Counted from the stretch's first letter, positions 3,735-34,269 are shown. The stretch is DNA of 35,331 bases from a virus (IMGVR_UViG_2703718813_000007); one strand, 5' to 3'. Numbers and translations are program-made. Notes: generated from the letters alone by a model not told the origin.

Positions 3735-5408
3735 TTATTCGATTATTGGTGAATATTTATTTTTAAGCTGGCGGCACTCCTGAGCGACCTGGCTGAACTG
3801 TGCGGCCTGCGGAGACGTGCCCGTTTTGGGGTGGGTATGTGATGCCGTAATATCGGCCAGCTCTTCCACCACATCGGCAAGGTCCGTCAGCATGGTCAGT
3901 ACATTAATGCCCTCGTTTCCCAGCTTCACCGTATCGCCAACCAGCTTCTGCGCCAGCGCAATACTGTGACGGACGCCCTTAATCTTTTCGGTAAGGCTGC
4001 CGCCCACGGTGTCCAGTGTGTCGCCTTCCACGTCGCGCTCACAGGTACCGGCAACCACCATCATGTGCCCGCCCGTGCTGATGCTGTAGTTCTCTTCAGT
4101 GATATGGGTGACTGCGCCAGCCTGAAGCGTGGATACGCCCAGGACGGTGGTTGTGTCGGTTGCCTGTATGGTGGTCTCCCGGCTGGTCAGGCTCCGCGTC
4201 TCCTCGTCTGCGCTCACCACGCGCTCGCGTGATGTCTCCTGTATCCGCTGGTCTGTCTGGCGCTCCCAGTCTCCGGCGACCGTCACGCGCTGCGATACGC
4301 CGTCGCGCTGTTGCTGCAACTGCTCGCCCGGCTTCACGTCGGGCAGATTGTGGCCCTCTGCCATTATCTGGCGGATGAAGGGCTTATCCGCCCGGCCTTC
4401 CACAAATCCCACTTCCACCAGGGTTCCGGGTGGCGGGAACTGGAACATGCCGGACTCACTGCCCGCCATGGGTACGGGGAGGGGAACGGCGTTATAAACG
4501 GGCGTATCCGCTGCCGGGTTGCCGTTCTCGTCAAGCAGCTGGAGATTCACCGCGTAGCGGGGTCTGAACGGGTCGGCAATATTGCCCGCGCTGACGGCTT
4601 CGGTCGGCGCCTCAACACGTGCCAGTTTGGGCAGGTGAAGCCCTGATGCCAGTTCAGGGAAGGCCTTTTCAGCCTGGCGACGGAAAGGGGACTTCTGGAG
4701 GGGGGCGCCGGTGGCTTTATTGCGTGGTGTCCACGTGATGGTCATGTTGTCATCTTCCAGCATGACCATCGTCAGGCGCTGACCGTTCACCTCCACACCC
4801 GGTCGCAGCGTCTGAATCATCGGGAGGGTCATACTGTGTCCGCCCGTTGATGCCTGGCTGAACTCGTGCGGGATGGTGACGGGGCGACCGGAAAACATCC
4901 CCTGCGCGGCGGCAGCGGCCATAATGCCGCCGTCCGGTAACGGATGCCAGATGTAGTCCGGTACGGAGAAAATACGCCCCAGACTGGCCAGCAGTTCGTA
5001 GCCCGTGCCGCTGTGCGTGAAATGCGGAACGGGCCTGTCAGTGTAAGCCGCGTTGTCCGGCAGGATGATTTCCAGCCCGCTGGTCTCACTCAGCCACTGT
5101 GTGACCGTGCGCATTGTCGGGTGCTGAAATGAACAGGGGAAGGGGTGATCAAGGATCCCCGCCATTTCACGAATCAGAAGCCGCACCGAGCCGTTTTCAG
5201 CGGGCTGGCTGCGTTCAACGTATCCGGTAAACCAGCGCACCAGGTCGTTTCCGTATCCGATATCGAGACGAACAGGGCGCCCGGTGTAGTTCTGCTCTGT
5301 TCTGGCCGTGATAAATCCGCGTCCGCACGCGTTCAGCTCAAGCATGACGGAACAGCTGACCAGCTGAATGGTGTCGTTACCCAGTAACAGACGTTTAGTG
5401 GGGTTCAT
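3735..5408 (-). CDS. Baseplate hub-spike fusion protein (N-terminal hub region plus C-terminal P2 gpV-like spike with apex motif), 557 aa
   Basis: The segment GTLVEVGFVEGRADKPFI resembles the OB-fold of the P2 gpV family, and the C-terminal ASHTHPKTGTSP resembles the gpV/gp5 apex motif (HTHKHPGDSGGTTGSP in P2 V as I recall it). Last gene of the tail operon. From memory only. Confidence 0.55.
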   Translation of the reverse strand: MNPTKRLLLGNDTIQLVSCSVMLELNACGRGFITARTEQNYTGRPVRLDIGYGNDLVRWFTGYVERSQPAENGSVRLLIREMAGILDHPFPCSFQHPTMRTVTQWLSETSGLEIILPDNAAYTDRPVPHFTHSGTGYELLASLGRIFSVPDYIWHPLPDGGIMAAAAAQGMFSGRPVTIPHEFSQASTGGHSMTLPMIQTLRPGVEVNGQRLTMVMLEDDNMTITWTPRNKATGAPLQKSPFRRQAEKAFPELASGLHLPKLARVEAPTEAVSAGNIADPFRPRYAVNLQLLDENGNPAADTPVYNAVPLPVPMAGSESGMFQFPPPGTLVEVGFVEGRADKPFIRQIMAEGHNLPDVKPGEQLQQQRDGVSQRVTVAGDWERQTDQRIQETSRERVVSADEETRSLTSRETTIQATDTTTVLGVSTLQAGAVTHITEENYSISTGGHMMVVAGTCERDVEGDTLDTVGGSLTEKIKGVRHSIALAQKLVGDTVKLGNEGINVLTMLTDLADVVEELADITASHTHPKTGTSPQAAQFSQVAQECRQLKNKYSPIIE

Positions 5409-22264: not shown

Positions 22265-24070
22265 ATGGCTAAATATTCTGACGAAATCAAAGAGGCGGCG
22301 CGATCGCTTTACCTGAAGCGGTGGCACCCCCGCGATATTGCGGCGGAACTCGGTATTCCGCCGCGCACGGTTTACCACTGGTGTGATGTGGGGCAGTGGG
22401 CTACCCTGCTGCCCGCTGAATCCGTTGAGGACGTGATCGCCCGGCGTATTGATGTGCTGACCGGACGGGAGGGCAAGACAGAGTGTGAACTTGCCGAACT
22501 GCGTGAACTTATCGCGCAGCACGTGAAGATCATCGCCCAGAAAAACAAACACGCTGAAAGGATGGCGGAAATTGCCGCCCTGCGTCCGGCAGGGCATGAG
22601 GACGGCGTGGCTGCGGGGACCTGCGGCGGGGGAGAAGGGAAAAAGCGGCGCTACCGGAAAAACGACGTTTCCGGACTGACTGCTGAAATGCTGGATGAAT
22701 GGGCGCGTAAAAATCTTTATGCCTACCAGCTGCACTGCCGCGAGAACCGGCACCGTGAGCGCCGTTTCATCCTCAAGAGCCGCCAGATCGGCATGACCTG
22801 GTATTTTGCATGGGAGGCGTTCGAAGATGCGGTGGTGACCGGTGATAACCAGATTTTCTTTTCTGCGTCACGGGTACAGGCGGAAATCTTCCGTGAATAT
22901 ATTATTAACTTCGCCCTGCAGTTCGGGATCACGCTCACGGGTAAGCATATCCGTCTGAGCAATGGTGCAATGCTGCGTTTCCTGTCCACCAATGCCAGTA
23001 CCGCCCAGGGATTTAACGGCCACCTTTACGGCGATGAGGTGTTCTGGATCCCAAAATTCACGCGACTGCATGAAGTGGCCTCGGCAATGGCGACCCACGA
23101 CAAATACCGCACGACGTATTTTTCCACACCCAGCGCCAAAACCCACCAGGCTTATCTGGTCTGGAATGGTGACGACTGGCGCGGGGATGACCCGGCGCGT
23201 CGTGCTGTTGAGTTTCCGAAAGAAAGCGCGATGCGTGTGGGCTGTGAATGCCCTGACGGGATCTGGCGCTACATTATCCGGCTGGAAGAGGCGGTGGCGG
23301 GTGGCCTGTCTGCTCGGGTTGATATTGAACGTATCAGGAACCGCTACAATCCGACCACTTACGCGATGCTGTACGGCTGCGAGTTTGTTGACAGCAAGGA
23401 TGCGGTATTTAAGTTCTCCGAACTGGTCAGGTGCGAGGTGGAGATGGAGACGTGGGGTGACTACGATCCCACGGCGGCACGTCCGTTCGGCAATCGTGAG
23501 GTGTGGGCGGGCTTTGACCCGTCAAGGTCCGGGGATAATTCCACGTTTGTAATTGTGGCTCCGCCTGTCCATGAGGGCGAGCGGTTCCGTGTGCTCGCCG
23601 TCTGGCAGTGGCAGGGATTTAACTTCACCTGGCAGGCCGATCAGATCCGCGAACTGATGCAGCGTTTTAACATTACCTATATCGGCATAGATATCACCGG
23701 TATCGGGAAAGGGGTGTTTGATATCGTCAGTCGCTTTGCGCCACGTGAGGCTAACGCCATTCTTTACAGCGTGGAGAGCAAAAACCGCCTGGTGATGAAA
23801 ATGATAGACGTGGTGGCCCATAAGCGTATCGAGTGGGCGAAAGACGCCATTGATGAGGCCAGCCGTGAACGCACGGAGATCCCCGCGTCGTTCATGTCCA
23901 TACGCCGCACCACCACAAAAAGCGGTAACGCGCTGACGTTCGTGGCGGAACGGTCGGATGTTACGGGGCATGCGGATGTGTTTTTTGCCATTTCGCACGC
24001 CGTGATTAATGAGCCTGTAGATTATGACTATGAACGCCCGTCCACATGGGCCTTCGGGAAAGCCGCATGA
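22265..24070 (+). CDS. P: Terminase large (ATPase) subunit, P2 gpP-like, about 601 aa
   Basis: Size, position and general similarity to P2 P. The ATG at 22265 aligns with the P2 P start; the track ORF begins at 22244. Confidence 0.88.
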   Translation: MAKYSDEIKEAARSLYLKRWHPRDIAAELGIPPRTVYHWCDVGQWATLLPAESVEDVIARRIDVLTGREGKTECELAELRELIAQHVKIIAQKNKHAERMAEIAALRPAGHEDGVAAGTCGGGEGKKRRYRKNDVSGLTAEMLDEWARKNLYAYQLHCRENRHRERRFILKSRQIGMTWYFAWEAFEDAVVTGDNQIFFSASRVQAEIFREYIINFALQFGITLTGKHIRLSNGAMLRFLSTNASTAQGFNGHLYGDEVFWIPKFTRLHEVASAMATHDKYRTTYFSTPSAKTHQAYLVWNGDDWRGDDPARRAVEFPKESAMRVGCECPDGIWRYIIRLEEAVAGGLSARVDIERIRNRYNPTTYAMLYGCEFVDSKDAVFKFSELVRCEVEMETWGDYDPTAARPFGNREVWAGFDPSRSGDNSTFVIVAPPVHEGERFRVLAVWQWQGFNFTWQADQIRELMQRFNITYIGIDITGIGKGVFDIVSRFAPREANAILYSVESKNRLVMKMIDVVAHKRIEWAKDAIDEASRERTEIPASFMSIRRTTTKSGNALTFVAERSDVTGHADVFFAISHAVINEPVDYDYERPSTWAFGKAA

Positions 24071-25119
24071 GCAAGAAACGCAGAAACAAAACGTCACGCG
24101 TGACGAAAAAAGCATTCACGCCCGCACGTGGCAGCACAATCACGTTTGGTCAGCCGGAACCGGTGCTGACCACCGGCACGGACTACCATAACATCTGGTA
24201 TGACAACGAACACAACCACTGGCAGCTGCCGATTAACCGCCTGGCACTGGCGCAGCTCCCGAACCTTAACGCCCAGCACGGTGGGGTGCTGTATGCCCGC
24301 CGTAACATGGTGGCGGGGGGCTATACCGGTGGTGGCCTCACAACGGACCAGATGGAACAGGCGGTATTTGACTACCTGTTGTTCGGCGATCTCGCCCTGC
24401 TCAAGGTGCGTAACGTATTCGGCGACGTCGTGGCACTTGAGCCGCTTCCGTCGCTGTATCTCCGGCGCCGCAAAACCGGTGAGTTCGTGGTGCTTCAGGA
24501 AGGCCCCGCGCTGGTCTATACGCCGGAAGATATTATCTTTCTGCGGATGTATGATCCGCGTCAGCAAATTTACGGGCTGCCGGATTATATCGGTGGCATT
24601 CACTCGGCGCTGCTGAACAGCGAGGCCAGCCTTTTTCGTCGCCGTTACTACAACAACGGGGCGCATATGGGGTTTTTGCTGTATACGAACGACCCGGGGA
24701 TCACCACGGAGATGGAGGATGAGATCCGCGAGAAGGTGGCGGAGTCTAAGGGGCTGGGAAATTTCCGCAATCTGTACATCAACATCCCCAAAGGTTCGCC
24801 GGATGGGGTGAAAATTATTCCGATTGGTGAGGTGAGCGCCAAGGATGAATTTTCAAACATCAAGGGGATCAGCGCCCAGGATGTGTTTACGGCACACCGC
24901 TTTCCTGCCGGTCTTGCGGGGATCATCCCCACGAACGGGGCCACCATCCCTAACCCGGAAACGACGCGTGAAACGTACCGCAAGGATGAGGTGATACCGC
25001 TTCAGCGTAAAATCATGAACGCCGTGAACAGCGATCCCGATATACCGGAACACCTTTATCTTCGTTTTGATGTGGATGCCGGGCATGTGGCGGAAGAAAA
25101 AGCGGTGCCGGTCGGGTAA
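24067..25119 (+). CDS. Q: Portal protein, P2 gpQ-like, about 350 aa
   Basis: The ATG at 24067 overlaps the P stop (ATGA). Portal-sized protein downstream of terminase in the P-Q operon. Confidence 0.85.
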   Translation: MSKKRRNKTSRVTKKAFTPARGSTITFGQPEPVLTTGTDYHNIWYDNEHNHWQLPINRLALAQLPNLNAQHGGVLYARRNMVAGGYTGGGLTTDQMEQAVFDYLLFGDLALLKVRNVFGDVVALEPLPSLYLRRRKTGEFVVLQEGPALVYTPEDIIFLRMYDPRQQIYGLPDYIGGIHSALLNSEASLFRRRYYNNGAHMGFLLYTNDPGITTEMEDEIREKVAESKGLGNFRNLYINIPKGSPDGVKIIPIGEVSAKDEFSNIKGISAQDVFTAHRFPAGLAGIIPTNGATIPNPETTRETYRKDEVIPLQRKIMNAVNSDPDIPEHLYLRFDVDAGHVAEEKAVPVG

Positions 25120-25156
25120 AATGTCCTCCCCGGGATACGTGTTATCGGGAGGTAAG

Positions 25157-25420
25157 ATGCGGATTTTTAAAGCCCGGTGTCCGGACTGTGGCGCACCTGC
25201 TGTCATCCGGAAGACAGACTGGAAAACCCCTGAACTTGCGGATCTGTACTGTGCATGCAGTGATGTCGAATGCGGGCATACCTTCGTCTGTACGATGACC
25301 TTTTCCCATACCCTCAGCCCCGGCGCCCGCTCCGGTCGCAATATGGTGAAGTTCCTGGTGGATGCCATGCGCCCGGAAGATCGCCGGTATGCGCTTGAAC
25401 TACTGTCGCGGCGTTCCTGA
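25157..25420 (+). CDS. ogr: Ogr/Delta-family zinc-finger late-gene activator, about 87 aa
   Basis: Cys pattern CPDCG ... YCACSDVECGHTF matches the Ogr/Delta C-x2-C ... C-x4-C-x2-TF signature. The ATG at 25157 is preceded by GGGAGG. Confidence 0.75.
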   Translation: MRIFKARCPDCGAPAVIRKTDWKTPELADLYCACSDVECGHTFVCTMTFSHTLSPGARSGRNMVKFLVDAMRPEDRRYALELLSRRS

Positions 25421-25447
25421 CGCGCTTCGCTTGTCTGCTGCTTCGCC

Positions 25448-25470
25448 GGGGCAAAAAGAATTTTTGCCCC
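25448..25470. terminator. Bidirectional Rho-independent terminator between convergent ogr (+) and the cargo operon (-)
   Basis: GGGGCAAAAA (25448-25457), loop GAA, TTTTTGCCCC (25461-25470): a 10-bp stem with A/T runs serving either strand. Confidence 0.6.
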
Positions 25471-25482
25471 GACTCACCAGCT

Positions 25483-26046
25483 TCATGAAAAATCTGGTAC
25501 TGAATACAGAGGCATAACCTGAAATCCGTTACACTTCCAGGACTGCGCTATATCTGGTGACTGCGTGATGGCGGGTAACGGGATTCTGTCATTCCAGGTC
25601 ACCCATGCCTTTGGCTCAGAGGTCAGGATCATTAACGCAATGCGGTAACTTTGTAGCCTGGCTTCATCATCCTCTGAAAGCCCGAACGGGATATCTGATT
25701 TTACCTCATCCATCTGTTCGATTTCCTTCCCTAAAAATACCTCGAGGAAGTTTCTGCTCTCCTGGCATAAGGCCATTTCCGGTATTGTGTACAGTGATTC
25801 AACATGTCGGCCTGCACGGTTCCAGGCTTTCACAGCGACATCGTGTCGTGTAATGTCGAAAGAAAGGCTTTCTTTGCCCGGAGTGGGGGATCTCCATGCT
25901 ACCGCCTTTGCGGTAAGTGCCTCCAGTGTAATACGGTGTACGCATAAGCGCATGAGGGTGTCATCGTCAGAAATCTCCTGTGTGTTCATTTTTTCAAGCT
26001 GCTCAATTTCATGGAGGTTATATTTTTTTAGTTGTCTTCTTTTCAT
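25483..26046 (-). CDS. Hypothetical protein, 187 aa, in the cargo slot between A and ogr/Q
   Basis: The ATG at 26046 (preceded by AAGGAAAAA) avoids overlap with the upstream small ORF; the track start is 26100. No recognisable motif. Local GC is lower than the phage backbone, by eye. Confidence 0.5.
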   Translation of the reverse strand: MKRRQLKKYNLHEIEQLEKMNTQEISDDDTLMRLCVHRITLEALTAKAVAWRSPTPGKESLSFDITRHDVAVKAWNRAGRHVESLYTIPEMALCQESRNFLEVFLGKEIEQMDEVKSDIPFGLSEDDEARLQSYRIALMILTSEPKAWVTWNDRIPLPAITQSPDIAQSWKCNGFQVMPLYSVPDFS

Positions 26047-26062
26047 ATGTTTTTCCTTTCGG

Positions 26063-26227
26063 TCACGAGAGTAACCAGATAACTGCAACGGTTGCCGCAT
26101 AAATTCTGGCGATAAAGCCTGCTGTGAAGTGGCGAAACGGGTTTTCCCACGTCAGGAATGCCATTAAAGCAATCCATGCAATGGTAAAAATCAGTGCGCC
26201 CTTAACGGCGATAAACAGTTCGTTCAT
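26063..26227 (-). CDS. Small two-helix membrane protein, 54 aa (below the ORF-track size cut-off)
   Basis: ATG at 26227 preceded by GGAGAACACCACA; translates to MNELFIAVKGALIFTIAWIALMAFLTWENPFRHFTAGFIARIYAATVAVIWLLS with two hydrophobic segments. Stop at 26063, 16 nt before the 187 aa gene start. Confidence 0.4.
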   Translation of the reverse strand: MNELFIAVKGALIFTIAWIALMAFLTWENPFRHFTAGFIARIYAATVAVIWLLS

Positions 26228-26300
26228 TGTGGTGTTCTCCTTTGTGTGTAGGGCGAATGAATTGCGTTGCGGTGAAAAAATCGGGCGCGTCAGTGCGGCC

Positions 26301-26456
26301 TTACTGCTGACGGCGTTCCCGGAGTTCGGTCAGTGCTGCAAGTAAATTCTCCCACCACGTTTCTTCCACGACCGGGTTTTGTCGTGAAAGCAGCTGCTGT
26401 GCCGACTCAATCATTTTCGTAAGCTCCCTGTCGCTGATCCTCCTGGTGTCGTTCAT
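26301..26456 (-). CDS. Small hypothetical protein, about 51 aa (helical, charged)
   Basis: The internal ATG at 26456 is preceded by AAGGAG at 8 nt (MNDTRRISDRELTKMIESAQQLLSRQNPVVEETWWENLLAALTELRERRQQ); the track start is 26495. Confidence 0.4.
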   Translation of the reverse strand: MNDTRRISDRELTKMIESAQQLLSRQNPVVEETWWENLLAALTELRERRQQ

Positions 26457-26504
26457 TGTGCGCTCCTTTAGTTGGCTGTTTCTGGTCATGTTCATGGTCT
26501 TTGT

Positions 26505-26909
26505 TTACCTGCGTGATTGTCTGCCAGCGGCTGAATGCACATAGCGGGCAATTGCCGCTTTGCGGTTAATCGATGCCAGTGTTCTGGTCAGTTCTGCGTT
26601 GTGTTTGTGTGCCTGCTCTTCGTGGTACTGCCGCATGATTTTTCCGGCAGGCGTGAGCGGCTCCGGCTCTCCGGGCGGACGGCGCGGACGAACGGCGACA
26701 AGCCAGCTGCGGTTGGTGCTGTCCGGTCGTCCGTTGAGTATGTCGGTGATGATGGCCGTGGTGGTGCGATCGGGACTGACGACCGTGATTTCCAGCTCAT
26801 CGCCCGGTTGTGGCCCCGTGGCAATGTTGTTCAGGGTCAGTAAGGGCGTGCGCTGGCGCATCATTTCGTCAAAACGCTGGCGCTGCATGGCGCAATAAAA
26901 GCGGGTCAT
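26505..26909 (-). CDS. Hypothetical protein, 134 aa, translationally coupled to replication gene A
   Basis: The ATG at 26909 overlaps the A stop codon (ATGA). Occupies the position of P2 orf91. High-GC backbone composition. Confidence 0.55.
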   Translation of the reverse strand: MTRFYCAMQRQRFDEMMRQRTPLLTLNNIATGPQPGDELEITVVSPDRTTTAIITDILNGRPDSTNRSWLVAVRPRRPPGEPEPLTPAGKIMRQYHEEQAHKHNAELTRTLASINRKAAIARYVHSAAGRQSRR

Positions 26910-29425
26910 TGTGGCGCCTCCGTATTCGGTGCGGGGGTGATATCAATGCGGCGGGTGCTGTCATTCCAGTACGCGGTGCGTCCGTCAGCCAGGCGCACGC
27001 GGGCACCGTGACGGACGGAAACGACGGCGCTTTCATGCAGCTGCACGCCCAGCGCATCAAGCTCGCGGGTGATTTGTGCGGTGATGTGTGGCTCAGCGGT
27101 CAGTGCGACACTCACGCGAACGCCGCCAGCGGACGCACTGATGCCGCCGTTTTTCACGGTTTCCGTGTCAGGTTGCGGGTTTTTCAGCTGCCTGGTGAGT
27201 TGTTTTCGCTCTGTGGGGGTCAGTGACCTTAACCATTCACCCAAATCACCTTCCGGCAGGGTAAGTCGCTGCTCCCTGCGTCCGTCCGGCTGCCTTTCTG
27301 GCGGGTCGTTTATGGTCAGATTCTGGTCAGGGGGACAGTTATTGCCACGAGTCCAAGGTGCGGCAAAGCCGCACTCAACGTCAAAACCCTCGTCCGTGCG
27401 GTCTTCGTTTTCCGGCTTACGTCTGACCAGTTTCCAGGTGTCCGGGTGGGTGCATATGGTGTAGCGCTCCCCGAGTGACGGGGCGCGGACGCCGTAAATG
27501 CGTTGCGGGAATTCGCCGTAGTCGTTGGCCTCTTCGGCAGTTTCGTATGCGGTGCGGACTAGGTACGTGTTGCGGGGAATGAGCACACCACCCTGGCGGG
27601 TGATATAGGTGGCAAAACATCCCACGTCGGCGGCGGCCAGTATGGCGTCAATGTCGTCATGGTCCAGACGCTGCGGGGCAGCCGGGTTACGGGCCATCTG
27701 CCCGGCAAGGCGGCGGAGTTCTCGCCATACCTGGCGGGGAGGGATACCGAAGAACTGGAACTGGCGGATGCGGTGAAGGGCCGCCCAGCCGATGGCGTTC
27801 TCCACGGTTTCGGCCATGGTTTTGCCTGATTCCTTATCGACGTAAGGTTTGCCGGTTTTCGGGTCATTCCCCATGAAGGCGCTGGCGTCCAGGTTCTTAC
27901 CGATATAGGTCGCGATATAGCTCGCCGGTGTGCCTTTTGCCGGGTCGATTTTTTCGCATTTAAAACGCGGGGAGATATCATCACCCAGCTCTGCGCGGTC
28001 CTCCCTGATGGCGGCGTTGCGCATGATTTCAGTGATACGGGCTTCGTTTTCCGGGCTGGTGAATACCAGCATGTGCCAGTGCGGTGTACCGTCGTGGTGG
28101 GGCTCCACGGTGCGCACGCCGTACCAGCCCAGCCCGGCCTTGTTGATGGCCCTGCGGACGGCGGCGAAAAAGCGGTAAACCAGATAATCACTGGCATCAC
28201 GTACCGTTGCTCCGCAGTATTTCGGGTTCAGGCTGCCGTCATCGTTCACGCTGTGAAAACGGGAAGGGGCTGTGACGGTGACGAAAAACGCCACGTCGCC
28301 GCGTGCTTCGGCGACCTGCTCCATTCCCCGGACGCAGGCCATCATCTCGTTACGGCGGTTACGCGGATTAGAGAGACCTGCCCAGTAGATATCCTCAAGG
28401 CTGAACCGTTCTCCCTCTTCGTTCTCGATGTCCCAGGCCTTCAGAAAATCGCGGGTGCGCTGGCGTTTTTCGCGCCAGTCCAGTAACGCTTCATGGCTGA
28501 TATATACCGATGTCTTACGTGACACCAGACCTGCGGCGCGTAACAGTTCTTCACGCCAGATGTCCCGGAGGTGTCTTAACTGACTGTTCCACCATGTCGC
28601 ACAGGAAAGGCGCATGACCGCACCCGGCACCTGTTCCGGGTCGGGGGCGGTGCGGCGGTCGGGCCTGATTTCCAGCGACGGCCAGCAGGGTGGCGTGATA
28701 CCCAGTTTTAACGCCATGTGTGCCAGTGGCTGGTAGGTCAGTAACCAGGTGAACAGGTCATCGTCACCCCTGCCGGTCTTTTCGATGACCTCATCACATG
28801 CGCGCTCCAGTGCGGTGGAAAACGCGGTGGCGGTCAGGGTGGCAAGGCGCTGGATTTCGTCACGGCTCAGCTGCGGCAGCATAAGCAGTTCATCCAGCCG
28901 TTCGCGCGCGGCGGTGGCCTTAAAGGCCGGGGTGGCAAAGCGATCATTCACACGGGCGATACGTTTCAGGCGGGCACGCAGCCCGTGACGAACGAAGTTA
29001 TCCGCCGCGTATGCGCTGTTGTTCTTAAGCCCTTCCCGGCGTGCGCTCTCCTGTTTGCGGCTCAGGCGTGCCAGGTCACGGATGAGCGGACCGGCAAGAA
29101 ACGGCGGCAGGGCGCGCAGCTCTGCCATGGCTTCAGATACCAGCGTTGGCGGATTCTCGTGTTTGTGCCGCGCCAGTTTTTCCAGTCTGATCCGACGCTC
29201 TTCGTCGTGGTGAAGATGCGAATTAATTCGCTTGCCTTCGTCTGTGTTTGTCAGGAAGTCGACGGTCTCTTCATCCAGTCTTGCATCAATGCGAATGTCT
29301 TCGTTGATGTAGCTCTGAATGGCCTGGCGCAATGCGGTTGGTTGCGCTCTGCCGAATGTTTCAGGATCGATAACCGGTAGCGGGGCGTTCCACGGGTACG
29401 CCAGTTGTGCGTTATGGTCGCTCAT
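26906..29425 (-). CDS. A: Replication initiation endonuclease (rolling-circle), P2 gpA-like, about 839 aa
   Basis: Size and position match P2 A; the central region contains a His-hydrophobic-His cluster (PHWHMLVF) and downstream Tyr residues (ASYIATYIGK) typical of rolling-circle initiators. ATG at 29425; the track begins at a GTG at 29434. Confidence 0.88.
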   Translation of the reverse strand: MSDHNAQLAYPWNAPLPVIDPETFGRAQPTALRQAIQSYINEDIRIDARLDEETVDFLTNTDEGKRINSHLHHDEERRIRLEKLARHKHENPPTLVSEAMAELRALPPFLAGPLIRDLARLSRKQESARREGLKNNSAYAADNFVRHGLRARLKRIARVNDRFATPAFKATAARERLDELLMLPQLSRDEIQRLATLTATAFSTALERACDEVIEKTGRGDDDLFTWLLTYQPLAHMALKLGITPPCWPSLEIRPDRRTAPDPEQVPGAVMRLSCATWWNSQLRHLRDIWREELLRAAGLVSRKTSVYISHEALLDWREKRQRTRDFLKAWDIENEEGERFSLEDIYWAGLSNPRNRRNEMMACVRGMEQVAEARGDVAFFVTVTAPSRFHSVNDDGSLNPKYCGATVRDASDYLVYRFFAAVRRAINKAGLGWYGVRTVEPHHDGTPHWHMLVFTSPENEARITEIMRNAAIREDRAELGDDISPRFKCEKIDPAKGTPASYIATYIGKNLDASAFMGNDPKTGKPYVDKESGKTMAETVENAIGWAALHRIRQFQFFGIPPRQVWRELRRLAGQMARNPAAPQRLDHDDIDAILAAADVGCFATYITRQGGVLIPRNTYLVRTAYETAEEANDYGEFPQRIYGVRAPSLGERYTICTHPDTWKLVRRKPENEDRTDEGFDVECGFAAPWTRGNNCPPDQNLTINDPPERQPDGRREQRLTLPEGDLGEWLRSLTPTERKQLTRQLKNPQPDTETVKNGGISASAGGVRVSVALTAEPHITAQITRELDALGVQLHESAVVSVRHGARVRLADGRTAYWNDSTRRIDITPAPNTEAPQ

Positions 29426-29832
29426 GCGTCGCACTCCCCGGCAGTCGCCGCCTGAAACGCCGCGCGGTACAGCACGAGAAGGCGCTGGTATTCACCGATA
29501 AAGTCTTCTGCGGTGTATATGCCTTTCACGGCCACGCTGTGGTTTGTCATTTCCAGAACAAGCGTCATCTCTGACGACGACCAGCTGATGGCGGTGCTGT
29601 CGGTTCCGTTGATGTGAAATAAACCAAAACCATCACCTTTCACGTCCACGCGGTAACGGTCGTCAACGGTGAAGGAGAAATCCCCGTATGTGGTGACGCG
29701 TCTGGCGGCCTGTTTACAGGCGCGGCGGTAATAGTCGTGCCAGTCGTTGAGGCGGGAAGCCAGCCGGGGCTCCACTGCCCACATCCAGTTAAAAAAATCC
29801 TGAATATCTGAAAGTCCCTTAACGTTCTTCAT
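29422..29832 (-). CDS. Hypothetical early protein, 136 aa
   Basis: ATG at 29832 preceded by GGAGG; its stop overlaps the A start. Function unknown. Confidence 0.55.
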   Translation of the reverse strand: MKNVKGLSDIQDFFNWMWAVEPRLASRLNDWHDYYRRACKQAARRVTTYGDFSFTVDDRYRVDVKGDGFGLFHINGTDSTAISWSSSEMTLVLEMTNHSVAVKGIYTAEDFIGEYQRLLVLYRAAFQAATAGECDA

Positions 29833-33937: not shown

Positions 33938-34269
33938 TGTCAATAGACTACGCGGAAAAATTACGCCAGATACGTAAGGCGGAGGGCTTAACGCAAAAAC
34001 AATTTGCTGAAATTACAGGGTTATCTCTGGCCACCGTAAGGAATTATGAATCAGGGCAAAAGAGCGCCAGAGCTAAAATCGTGGAGTCGGTTCTTCAGGC
34101 AGATCGATTTGAAAAGTATATGTTTTGGCTGTTAAAGGATAAGACGCTACCTGCCGCCGGGCAAATTGCCCCGGCTCTCTCTCTTGATGGATCTTCTCAG
34201 TCGGAGGGCGATCTGGCTTCAATCGACGTTACCCAAAAATCATCCCGATCAGGCCGCAATGCTGGCTGA
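33928..34269 (+). CDS. C: Immunity repressor, P2 C-like (helix-turn-helix), 113 aa
   Basis: The N-terminal KLRQIRKAEGLTQKQFAEITGLSLATVRNYESGQ and the later GQIAPAL match P2 C as I recall it (SRQQLADLTG, QIAPAL). Directly upstream of the integrase. Confidence 0.8.
   Translation: MVILSIDYAEKLRQIRKAEGLTQKQFAEITGLSLATVRNYESGQKSARAKIVESVLQADRFEKYMFWLLKDKTLPAAGQIAPALSLDGSSQSEGDLASIDVTQKSSRSGRNAG

Follow-up and report, generated by a model that had tools for sequence, protein, structure and literature searches.

Does the stretch between the replication gene A and the ogr and portal (Q) genes of a P2-like prophage hold an undescribed cargo or defence module? The question is raised by positions 25483–26460 of the viral sequence IMGVR_UViG_2703718813_000007, which was analysed over its whole 35,331 nucleotides (hereafter the window). 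An initial annotation had placed a coupled set of three uncharacterised genes at these positions, here named p51, p54 and p187 after the lengths of their products. The slot in which they lie is a true variable hotspot at the P2 A-to-cos/Q position. p54 and p187 are foreign, low-GC cargo in this slot; p51 and the adjacent p134 are not. Judged from sequence, and with a probability of about 0.5, the p54–p187 pair is an early-expressed accessory cassette in which p187 would be a non-enzymatic bivalent binding or adaptor protein and p54 an independent inner-membrane protein.

A rare low-GC cassette in a variable slot

The sequence of the window is that of a P2-like (Peduoviridae) prophage of E. coli. 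It has 100% identity to E. coli JNEC-KY174 over the 1.9 kb compared, and its gpA is only ~53% identical to that of the P88-like Xuanwuviruses, the sequenced phages nearest to it. Minus-strand genes run in the order A, p134, p51, p54 and p187 and are followed by a 62-bp non-coding element, with ogr and the portal gene beyond it. These two and the terminase gene are located on the plus strand and converge with the A–p187 genes. The four small genes are co-directional with A, are spaced by 48, 73 and 16 nt (p134–p51–p54–p187) and are each preceded by a good Shine–Dalgarno site; RefSeq labels all of them as hypothetical proteins. Their GC content differs markedly, being 46.7–46.8% in p54 and p187, 53.2% in p51 and 59.8% in p134, compared with 60.0% in gpA and 55.8% in the window. 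The lower GC that had been noticed by eye in the 3′ part of the region is thereby confirmed.

Slot contents were compared among 29 related loci, 22 of those examined being IMG/VR loci that share p134, and among 5426 complete E. coli genomes, 12 of which carry this type of prophage. Three of the 12 prophages contain p51–p54–p187, three contain p51–p54 and an unrelated 72-residue gene (p72), and the remaining six contain p51–MarR. At least five contents are found between flanks that are >95% identical, namely p51–p54–p187, p51–p54–p72, p51–p54, p51–MarR, and p51 with a 90-residue protein. The IMG/VR loci provide further arrangements: p51 with a 90-residue gene, p51–p54 touching the hairpin of the 62-bp element, p51–MarR–SSB with a membrane protein, p51–MarR with a ClpX-zinc-finger protein, and a nearly empty slot. 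On the cos side, homology breaks at 25482/25483, the edge of the 62-bp element, in every variant; on the other side the break falls within p187, at 25983 near its 5′ end, or within p51, at 26311 near its 3′ end. The gene order from A to the portal gene and the polymorphism among near-identical prophages support the original assignment of the slot to the variable tin/old position of P2, and the presence/absence polymorphism expected of such a position was found, with a fixed breakpoint. This position is the gpA–gpQ hotspot of P2-like phages defined by Rousset et al. (2022; PMC9122126). No mention of the RefSeq accessions of the locus was found in papers or in the supplements of that study.

The genes of the slot are distributed differently. 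p134 is present in all 29 related loci, including the distant L009, and p51 in 16 of them, every time directly 3′ of p134 and followed by a varying neighbour (MarR, p54 or the 90-residue protein). p54 is found in five. Full-length p187 occurs in the window type (L001), in L008, in the short contig L037 and in L009, where identity is 31%; among the complete E. coli genomes it is present in 3 of 5426. Both p54 and p187 are missing from most close relatives whose A and p134 are >98% identical. The two genes have the same foreign GC content and are retained as a pair in three diverged copies (the window, L008 and L037), and for these reasons they probably arrived together as one cassette. They also occur separately: p54 without p187 in L002 and L014 (with p72 in L002) and in L015; p187-family proteins without p54 in L009, L027–30 and L041. 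The three genes had been regarded as one coupled set, a view not supported by the gaps of 73 and 16 nt, by the differing distribution and composition, or by the semi-conserved backbone status of p51.

Co-transcription with A, the universal presence of p134 and the frequency of p51 in the lineage would be consistent with p51, p54 and p187 being conserved backbone replication-accessory proteins, as would the link of E. coli YfdT, the sole experimentally studied relative of a p187 unit, to the control of replication initiation (PMC4776307). This idea is valid for p134 and in part for p51, which is a semi-conserved backbone gene, but not for p54 and p187, and as an account of all three genes it is very improbable. 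The absence of p54 and p187 from most close relatives, together with their foreign GC content, stands against it, and their presence/absence pattern largely rules out that they belong to a conserved replication family. Moreover, p134 and p51 gave no tblastn match in 50,697 GenBank phage records, despite strong PHROG matches, and are therefore not general P2-family genes.

Copies of the cassette show signs of decay. A decayed 5′ stub of p187 lies at positions 2265–2344 of L002 beside the 72-residue gene, with its ATG changed to GTG and a 1-nt deletion, from which it follows that the 72-residue cargo replaced p187 in a p54–p187 ancestor. p187 is wholly lost from L015. In L008 (E. coli GCA_023054335), positions 5001–5100, which correspond to window 25950–26046, contain a −1 change at one poly-A run of p187 and a +1 change at another. 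This compensated frameshift recodes ~14 codons (p187 residues 8–22) before the frame is restored; either the N-terminal helix of p187 tolerates full replacement or the A-runs of L008 are prone to slippage. These lesions, and the great rarity of both genes, would fit neutral or decaying passenger DNA left over from recombination. That explanation is nevertheless improbable. The open reading frames are intact and strong Shine–Dalgarno sites precede all the genes, and a distant phage retains, in the corresponding slot, a full-length 191-residue homologue of p187 with only 31% identity. In addition, the ratio of non-synonymous to synonymous substitution rates (dN/dS) is below 1 for p187 (0.35–0.44), p54 (0.07–0.32) and p51 (0.14–0.35) in copies with dS of 0.4–1.7. 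The three are therefore real genes, and they are under purifying selection.

Tandem units of p187 and their phage relatives

p187 had been described as lacking any recognisable motif. On the contrary, it contains an internal duplication and belongs to a recognisable, if uncharacterised, phage family. Alignment of its two halves with each other gives a score of 86, compared with 23.8 ± 4.2 for shuffled sequences, so that p187 consists of a ~90-residue unit duplicated in tandem. A helical-hairpin module ending in RIALxxLxxEP occurs twice in the protein, which is soluble, mildly acidic and 21.6 kDa in size. No catalytic signature was found in it, and searches against Pfam, NCBIfam and PADLOC gave nothing.

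A word-indexed protein search retrieved only three clusters for p187. An exhaustive profile search added one more full-length relative (P0004, 191 residues) and ~50 representative clusters that match unit 2 alone; 53 representative clusters match p187 residues ~100–185. The relatives of unit 2 are either free-standing proteins of 90–100 residues or N-terminal modules of proteins of 120–320 residues. Of the 53, 47–49 match phrog_660, phrog_5117 and phrog_60, all annotated as 'unknown function', and unit 2 of p187 also matches phrog_28084. Additional domains are present in some relatives, DUF551 in 12 and a dATP/dGTP pyrophosphohydrolase (MazZ-like dNTP pyrophosphohydrolase) in three. DUF551 (Pfam PF04448) is not part of p187 and appears in the relatives only as an extra C-terminal domain.

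In the alignment of the 53 relatives the unit is composed of two sub-modules. The first is a helical hairpin with the consensus ...EIPFGLDEDD...RIALASLEAEP. The second is a ~40-residue domain, AWLH...IPAIT...ADSW.SKGW.V.PLY, which covers residues ~130–185 of p187. AlphaFold2 (AF2) modelling with four sequences gave a poor predicted local distance difference test score (pLDDT) of 56; with the 53 sequences, unit 2 was modelled at pLDDT > 90, with the small domain adopting a beta-beta-alpha-beta arrangement. Fold comparison with the PDB and a PDB sequence-profile search for the p187 family yielded no match, and the matches of p187 in BFVD are same-family uncharacterised phage proteins only. The homology and structure searches proposed at the outset thus led to a phage family and to YfdT, but to nothing in Pfam, PADLOC or the PDB.

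YfdT is encoded by the cryptic prophage CPS-53 of E. coli K-12, and its residues 1–44 match the hairpin module (hhalign probability 95.8%, E = 7e-9). The experimental evidence on the family is indirect: multicopy yfdQR together with either yfdS or yfdT inhibits initiation at oriC, and YfdR binds DnaA (PMC4776307).

Homology of p187 to lambda Ea22 was considered and rejected, as no Ead_Ea22 Pfam match was found in p187 or the 53 relatives and no Ea22 chain appeared in the PDB profile search. The labels 'Ea22', 'Eae', 'EaA' and 'valyl-tRNA synthetase' among the tblastn matches are annotation noise; the 'Ea22' labels belong to adjacent or mosaic open reading frames.

A conserved acidic motif, (D/E)IPFG(L)DEDD, is found in the hairpin loop at window 25690–25707 (p187 residues ~114–119). 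The C-terminal tip of E. coli SSB is DDDIPF. The p187 loop motif resembles this tip, perhaps by coincidence; the short SSB-like protein of sister slot variants has no such tip.

Probable expression and possible roles of the cassette

The two hydrophobic segments of p54, at about residues 4–27 and 34–54 (Kyte–Doolittle peaks of 2.5 and 1.95), are in keeping with the two-helix membrane protein first proposed, although its description as unannotated was wrong, RefSeq listing it as a hypothetical protein. Matches to p54 amount to only three clusters in 5.8 billion proteins. It is predicted to be an independent small inner-membrane protein. A 12-nt start context, CACAATGAACGA, preceded by AAAGGAG, is identical in p54 and p51 (26220–26231 and 26449–26460), and that of p134 is similar (CACAATGAC). 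The common context of p51 and p54 may reflect a shared translation-initiation design or a small duplication.

Relatives of p187 occupy several genomic positions. In a lambdoid prophage, the closest single-unit relative (P0005) is encoded 3′ of O/P-type replication genes, and P0007 follows A–ParM–StbB in a P88-like phage, with more distal cargo beyond. In the distant P2-like phage of L009, P0004 is translationally coupled to the p134 homologue, and unit-like open reading frames come directly after p134 in L027–30. The matches in cdtI and 2H10 are N-terminal modules of a DUF551 protein in the early-left region near xis, and that in PhiR57_1 is a free-standing 84-residue open reading frame in the exo–xis region. 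In all these contexts (cdtI, 2H10, PhiR57_1, L038, L009, L027 and L041) the genes are co-directional with early replication or recombination genes. L009, L027–30 and L041 represent three further P2-like lineages, in which the p187 relative comes straight after A-proximal genes.

A consensus scan for sigma-70-like promoters returned no site in 25000–27200. In a position weight matrix scan the best site upstream of p51, p54 and p187 scored 5.7, compared with a 99.99th percentile of 8.8; the strongest minus-strand promoter-like site in the window lies at 33943–33914, near the immunity region. The scans reveal no promoter within or ahead of the cassette, which is therefore probably expressed by read-through from the early promoter. 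The p54–p187 genes thus appear to be laid out as the tail of an early operon rather than as a lysogenic-conversion unit. We infer that the quiescent lysogen would not transcribe the cassette, which would be expressed once infection or induction has occurred, with transcription stopping at the shared hairpin. p187, with its two hairpin plus alpha/beta units, would act early in development on a factor of the host or on a different protein of the phage. This could serve to take over the host, to control its replication or cell cycle, which has been suggested for YfdT, or to counteract defence systems.

The location of the cassette also invites another interpretation, in which p54–p187 is an undescribed anti-phage or superinfection-exclusion module, p54 acting as a membrane effector or injection blocker of the T4 Imm/HK97 gp15 type and p187 as a sensor or adaptor, or in which each gene is an independent exclusion gene. 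The cassette lies in the gpA–gpQ hotspot (PMC9122126), cargo turns over fast among near-identical prophages, and the cassette is low-GC, foreign and rare (p187 in 3 of 5426 genomes), with the pair together in three diverged versions. Relatives L021–23 carry known types of defence gene in the same slot: an HTH-M78 peptidase gene (PADLOC RmrA, E = 3e-35) overlapping a PIN gene (L021 8313–9966, L022 7046–8699), with an IS3-family element upstream of the pair in L021. The RmrA-like and PIN genes form a RosmerTA-like pair. Published priors point in the same direction, as 19% of P2-like phages have hotspots with unknown genes only, and 6 of 8 unknown P4 loci proved defensive when tested (PMC13586616).

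Other observations make a defence module possible but unlikely. PADLOC, Pfam and NCBIfam scans of p134, p51, p54 and p187 gave only sub-threshold noise, and no nuclease, NTPase, TIR, SIR2 or toxin domain was found in p51, p54 or p187 with Pfam and NCBIfam. The genes are co-directional with A at the tail of an apparent early operon, unlike old and tin, and no promoter of their own was detected. p54 and p187 are separable in nature, whereas a toxin–antitoxin or abortive-infection pair would be expected to co-occur obligately. The relatives of the p187 unit are common lambdoid early genes and not defence-island genes. A small membrane protein next to a larger cytoplasmic one had been taken as a layout typical of abortive-infection or toxin-type modules; nothing specific to such modules emerged, no defence-family match, toxin or enzyme domain, or promoter having been found.

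Several points weigh against an early-expressed accessory cassette with an adaptor-like p187. The absence of a promoter is the outcome of the consensus and position weight matrix scans only, and a promoter that is weak or not of the sigma-70 type is possible, as is lysogenic expression. AF2 confidence is good for unit 2 only. The link to YfdT spans only ~44 residues, and in the published work YfdT was redundant with YfdS and did not bind DnaA (PMC4776307). The slot is, moreover, a documented defence hotspot in which unknown genes are often defensive, and the RosmerTA-like pair is present in relatives. The accessory-cassette reading is still the one we prefer. It is rather doubtful that p187, alone or with p54, represents a new kind of phage exclusion or defence factor, or the first tractable case of a widespread portable adaptor with which temperate phages target a host replication or cell-cycle factor. 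Were that so, many lambdoid and P2-like early proteins of the same large family would gain a function.

Flanking features and comparison with known systems

The features of the slot and of its flanks are listed in Table 1.

Table 1. Coordinates of the cassette, its boundary and the flanking genes in the window
Feature	Position	Strand	Description	Evidence or remark
Portal protein gpQ	24046–25119	+	Downstream anchor of the slot	Open reading frame list; RefSeq 'phage portal protein'
Ogr/Delta	25157–25420	+	Zinc-finger late activator, 87 residues	Pfam Ogr_Delta, E = 1.3e-15; RefSeq
62-bp element	25421–25482		Non-coding; contains the hairpin	Fixed right-hand limit of the variable slot
Hairpin	25447–25471		Perfect 11-bp palindrome, 3-nt loop (13 bp on minus-strand RNA)	Inverted repeat
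p187	25483–26046	−	187 residues, two tandem units
p187 unit 2	25483–25770	−	Residues ~93–187 and stop	Helical hairpin SDIPFG...YRIALxxLTSEP and small alpha/beta domain AW...PLY
p187 unit 1	25771–26046	−	Residues ~1–92; helical hairpin and degenerate small domain	Low AF2 confidence
p54	26063–26227	−	54 residues, predicted small membrane protein, two hydrophobic helices	Leads the low-GC cassette; Shine–Dalgarno AAAGGAG
p51	26301–26456	−	51 residues, charged, helical	phrog_14672, E = 2e-29; strong Shine–Dalgarno AAAGGAG
p134	26505–26909	−	134 residues, basic, isoelectric point 10.7; backbone gene	phrog_14984, E = 1.8e-66
gpA	26906–29434	−	Replication endonuclease, 842 residues; upstream anchor of the slot	Open reading frame list; RefSeq; Pfam Phage_GPA in homologous loci

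The hairpin lies at the end of both convergent transcription units. It had been annotated as a strong terminator, and a strong fold is indeed present (−31.8 kcal/mol, z = −4.8), but a T/U tract is found on neither strand and the terminator scan made no call. Relative to P88, one pair of its stem differs by a compensatory change from A-T to T-A. A search of the hairpin against Rfam returned only a sub-threshold 'gyrA RNA' match. The surrounding 62-bp element is 92–94% conserved in 16 phage records and ~1100 E. coli genomes and lies directly after the portal stop codon in P88. The genomes that share it diverge elsewhere, with ~30% identity in the portal protein and ~53% in gpA between this prophage and the P88-like phages. 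The element might terminate transcription in both directions, belong to the packaging signal or anchor the recombination by which cargo is exchanged.

Directly after the hairpin, the minus strand reads GGCGAAGCAGCAGACAAGC (25429–25447); in P2, a hairpin is followed directly by the 19-nt cohesive end GGCGAGGCGGGGAAAGCAC. That 25429–25447 may be the cos end in this lineage is a speculative suggestion, since no convincing similarity emerged when the 62-bp element was aligned with the P2 cos region. Here ogr separates the conserved end element from the portal gene. Its place in P2 is near att/int, and P88-like relatives that share the 62-bp element lack ogr at this position.

On the A side, the ATG of p134 overlaps the A stop codon (ATGA). 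p134 is translationally coupled to A, universal in the lineage and part of the conserved backbone, and is the positional analogue of P2 Orf91. It gave no Pfam or PADLOC match. A p134 profile scan of genome contigs produced 393 pattern matches, none of which was confirmed. The charged helical character first ascribed to p51 is upheld, as one third of its residues are charged (isoelectric point 5.3); an alternative upstream ATG at 26495 would extend it to 64 residues. An intrinsic terminator 3′ of p51 was considered and rejected, the hairpin there being weak (−9 kcal/mol, z = 0). The replication module with p134 and p51 is known from prophages only.

The locus provides a clean natural case of cargo turnover at the P2 A–cos hotspot. 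The breakpoint is fixed at the conserved 62-bp element that contains the hairpin, and the slot also holds the non-cargo backbone genes p134 and p51. p187 ties this hotspot to the YfdT-like (phrog_660/60) early proteins of lambdoid phages, which form a large mosaic family, and a phenotype of p187 or p54, if established, would provide annotation for hundreds of phage and prophage genes. The cassette is rare, and there is at present no evidence for a new mechanism; the A–Q hotspot and the mosaic early family are known elements. What is new here is a rare p54–p187 hotspot cargo that includes a duplicated member of an uncharacterised mosaic family.

Compared with the tin/old locus of P2, the slot is alike in its position between A and the cos/portal end, in the swapping of cargo and in the known defence genes found in the slot of relatives. 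It is unlike tin/old in that ogr lies between the portal gene and the end element and in that no defence-family match was obtained. In P2, the coupling of Orf91 to A resembles that of p134, and old and tin are on the opposite strand, convergent to A, with their own promoter and mapped transcript starts next to cosR; the cargo described here runs with A, and two scans found no promoter for it. As had been judged at first without a search, none of the proteins resembles Old or Tin: BLASTP of p51, p54 and p187 against P2 Old, Tin and Orf91 gave a best E of 0.09 over 34 residues.

T4 Imm and HK97 gp15 are small phage membrane exclusion proteins. p54 is comparable to them as a very small, predicted two-helix membrane protein from the accessory region of a temperate phage, but has no sequence or family match to either. 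Lambda Ea22 is a pro-lysogenic exo–xis protein, and a nuclear magnetic resonance structure of its C-terminal domain is available (PMC10834534). p187 is alike in being apparently early and non-essential and in combining a helical or coiled-coil region with a small domain at the C terminus, and some matches of the p187 unit carry the label 'Ea22'. p187 also resembles YfdT and the lambdoid mosaic early proteins, a family (phrog_660, phrog_5117, phrog_60 and phrog_28084) whose members are labelled 'DUF551 domain-containing', 'Ea22', 'Eae' or 'EaA'. p187 shares with them the helical-hairpin module, in which EIPFGLDEDD often precedes the RIALxxLxxEP motif, the AW...PLY domain, the association with early operons and the mosaic, portable nature of the domains. 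It differs from them in that the whole unit is doubled, no other domain is attached and the host phage is P2-like.

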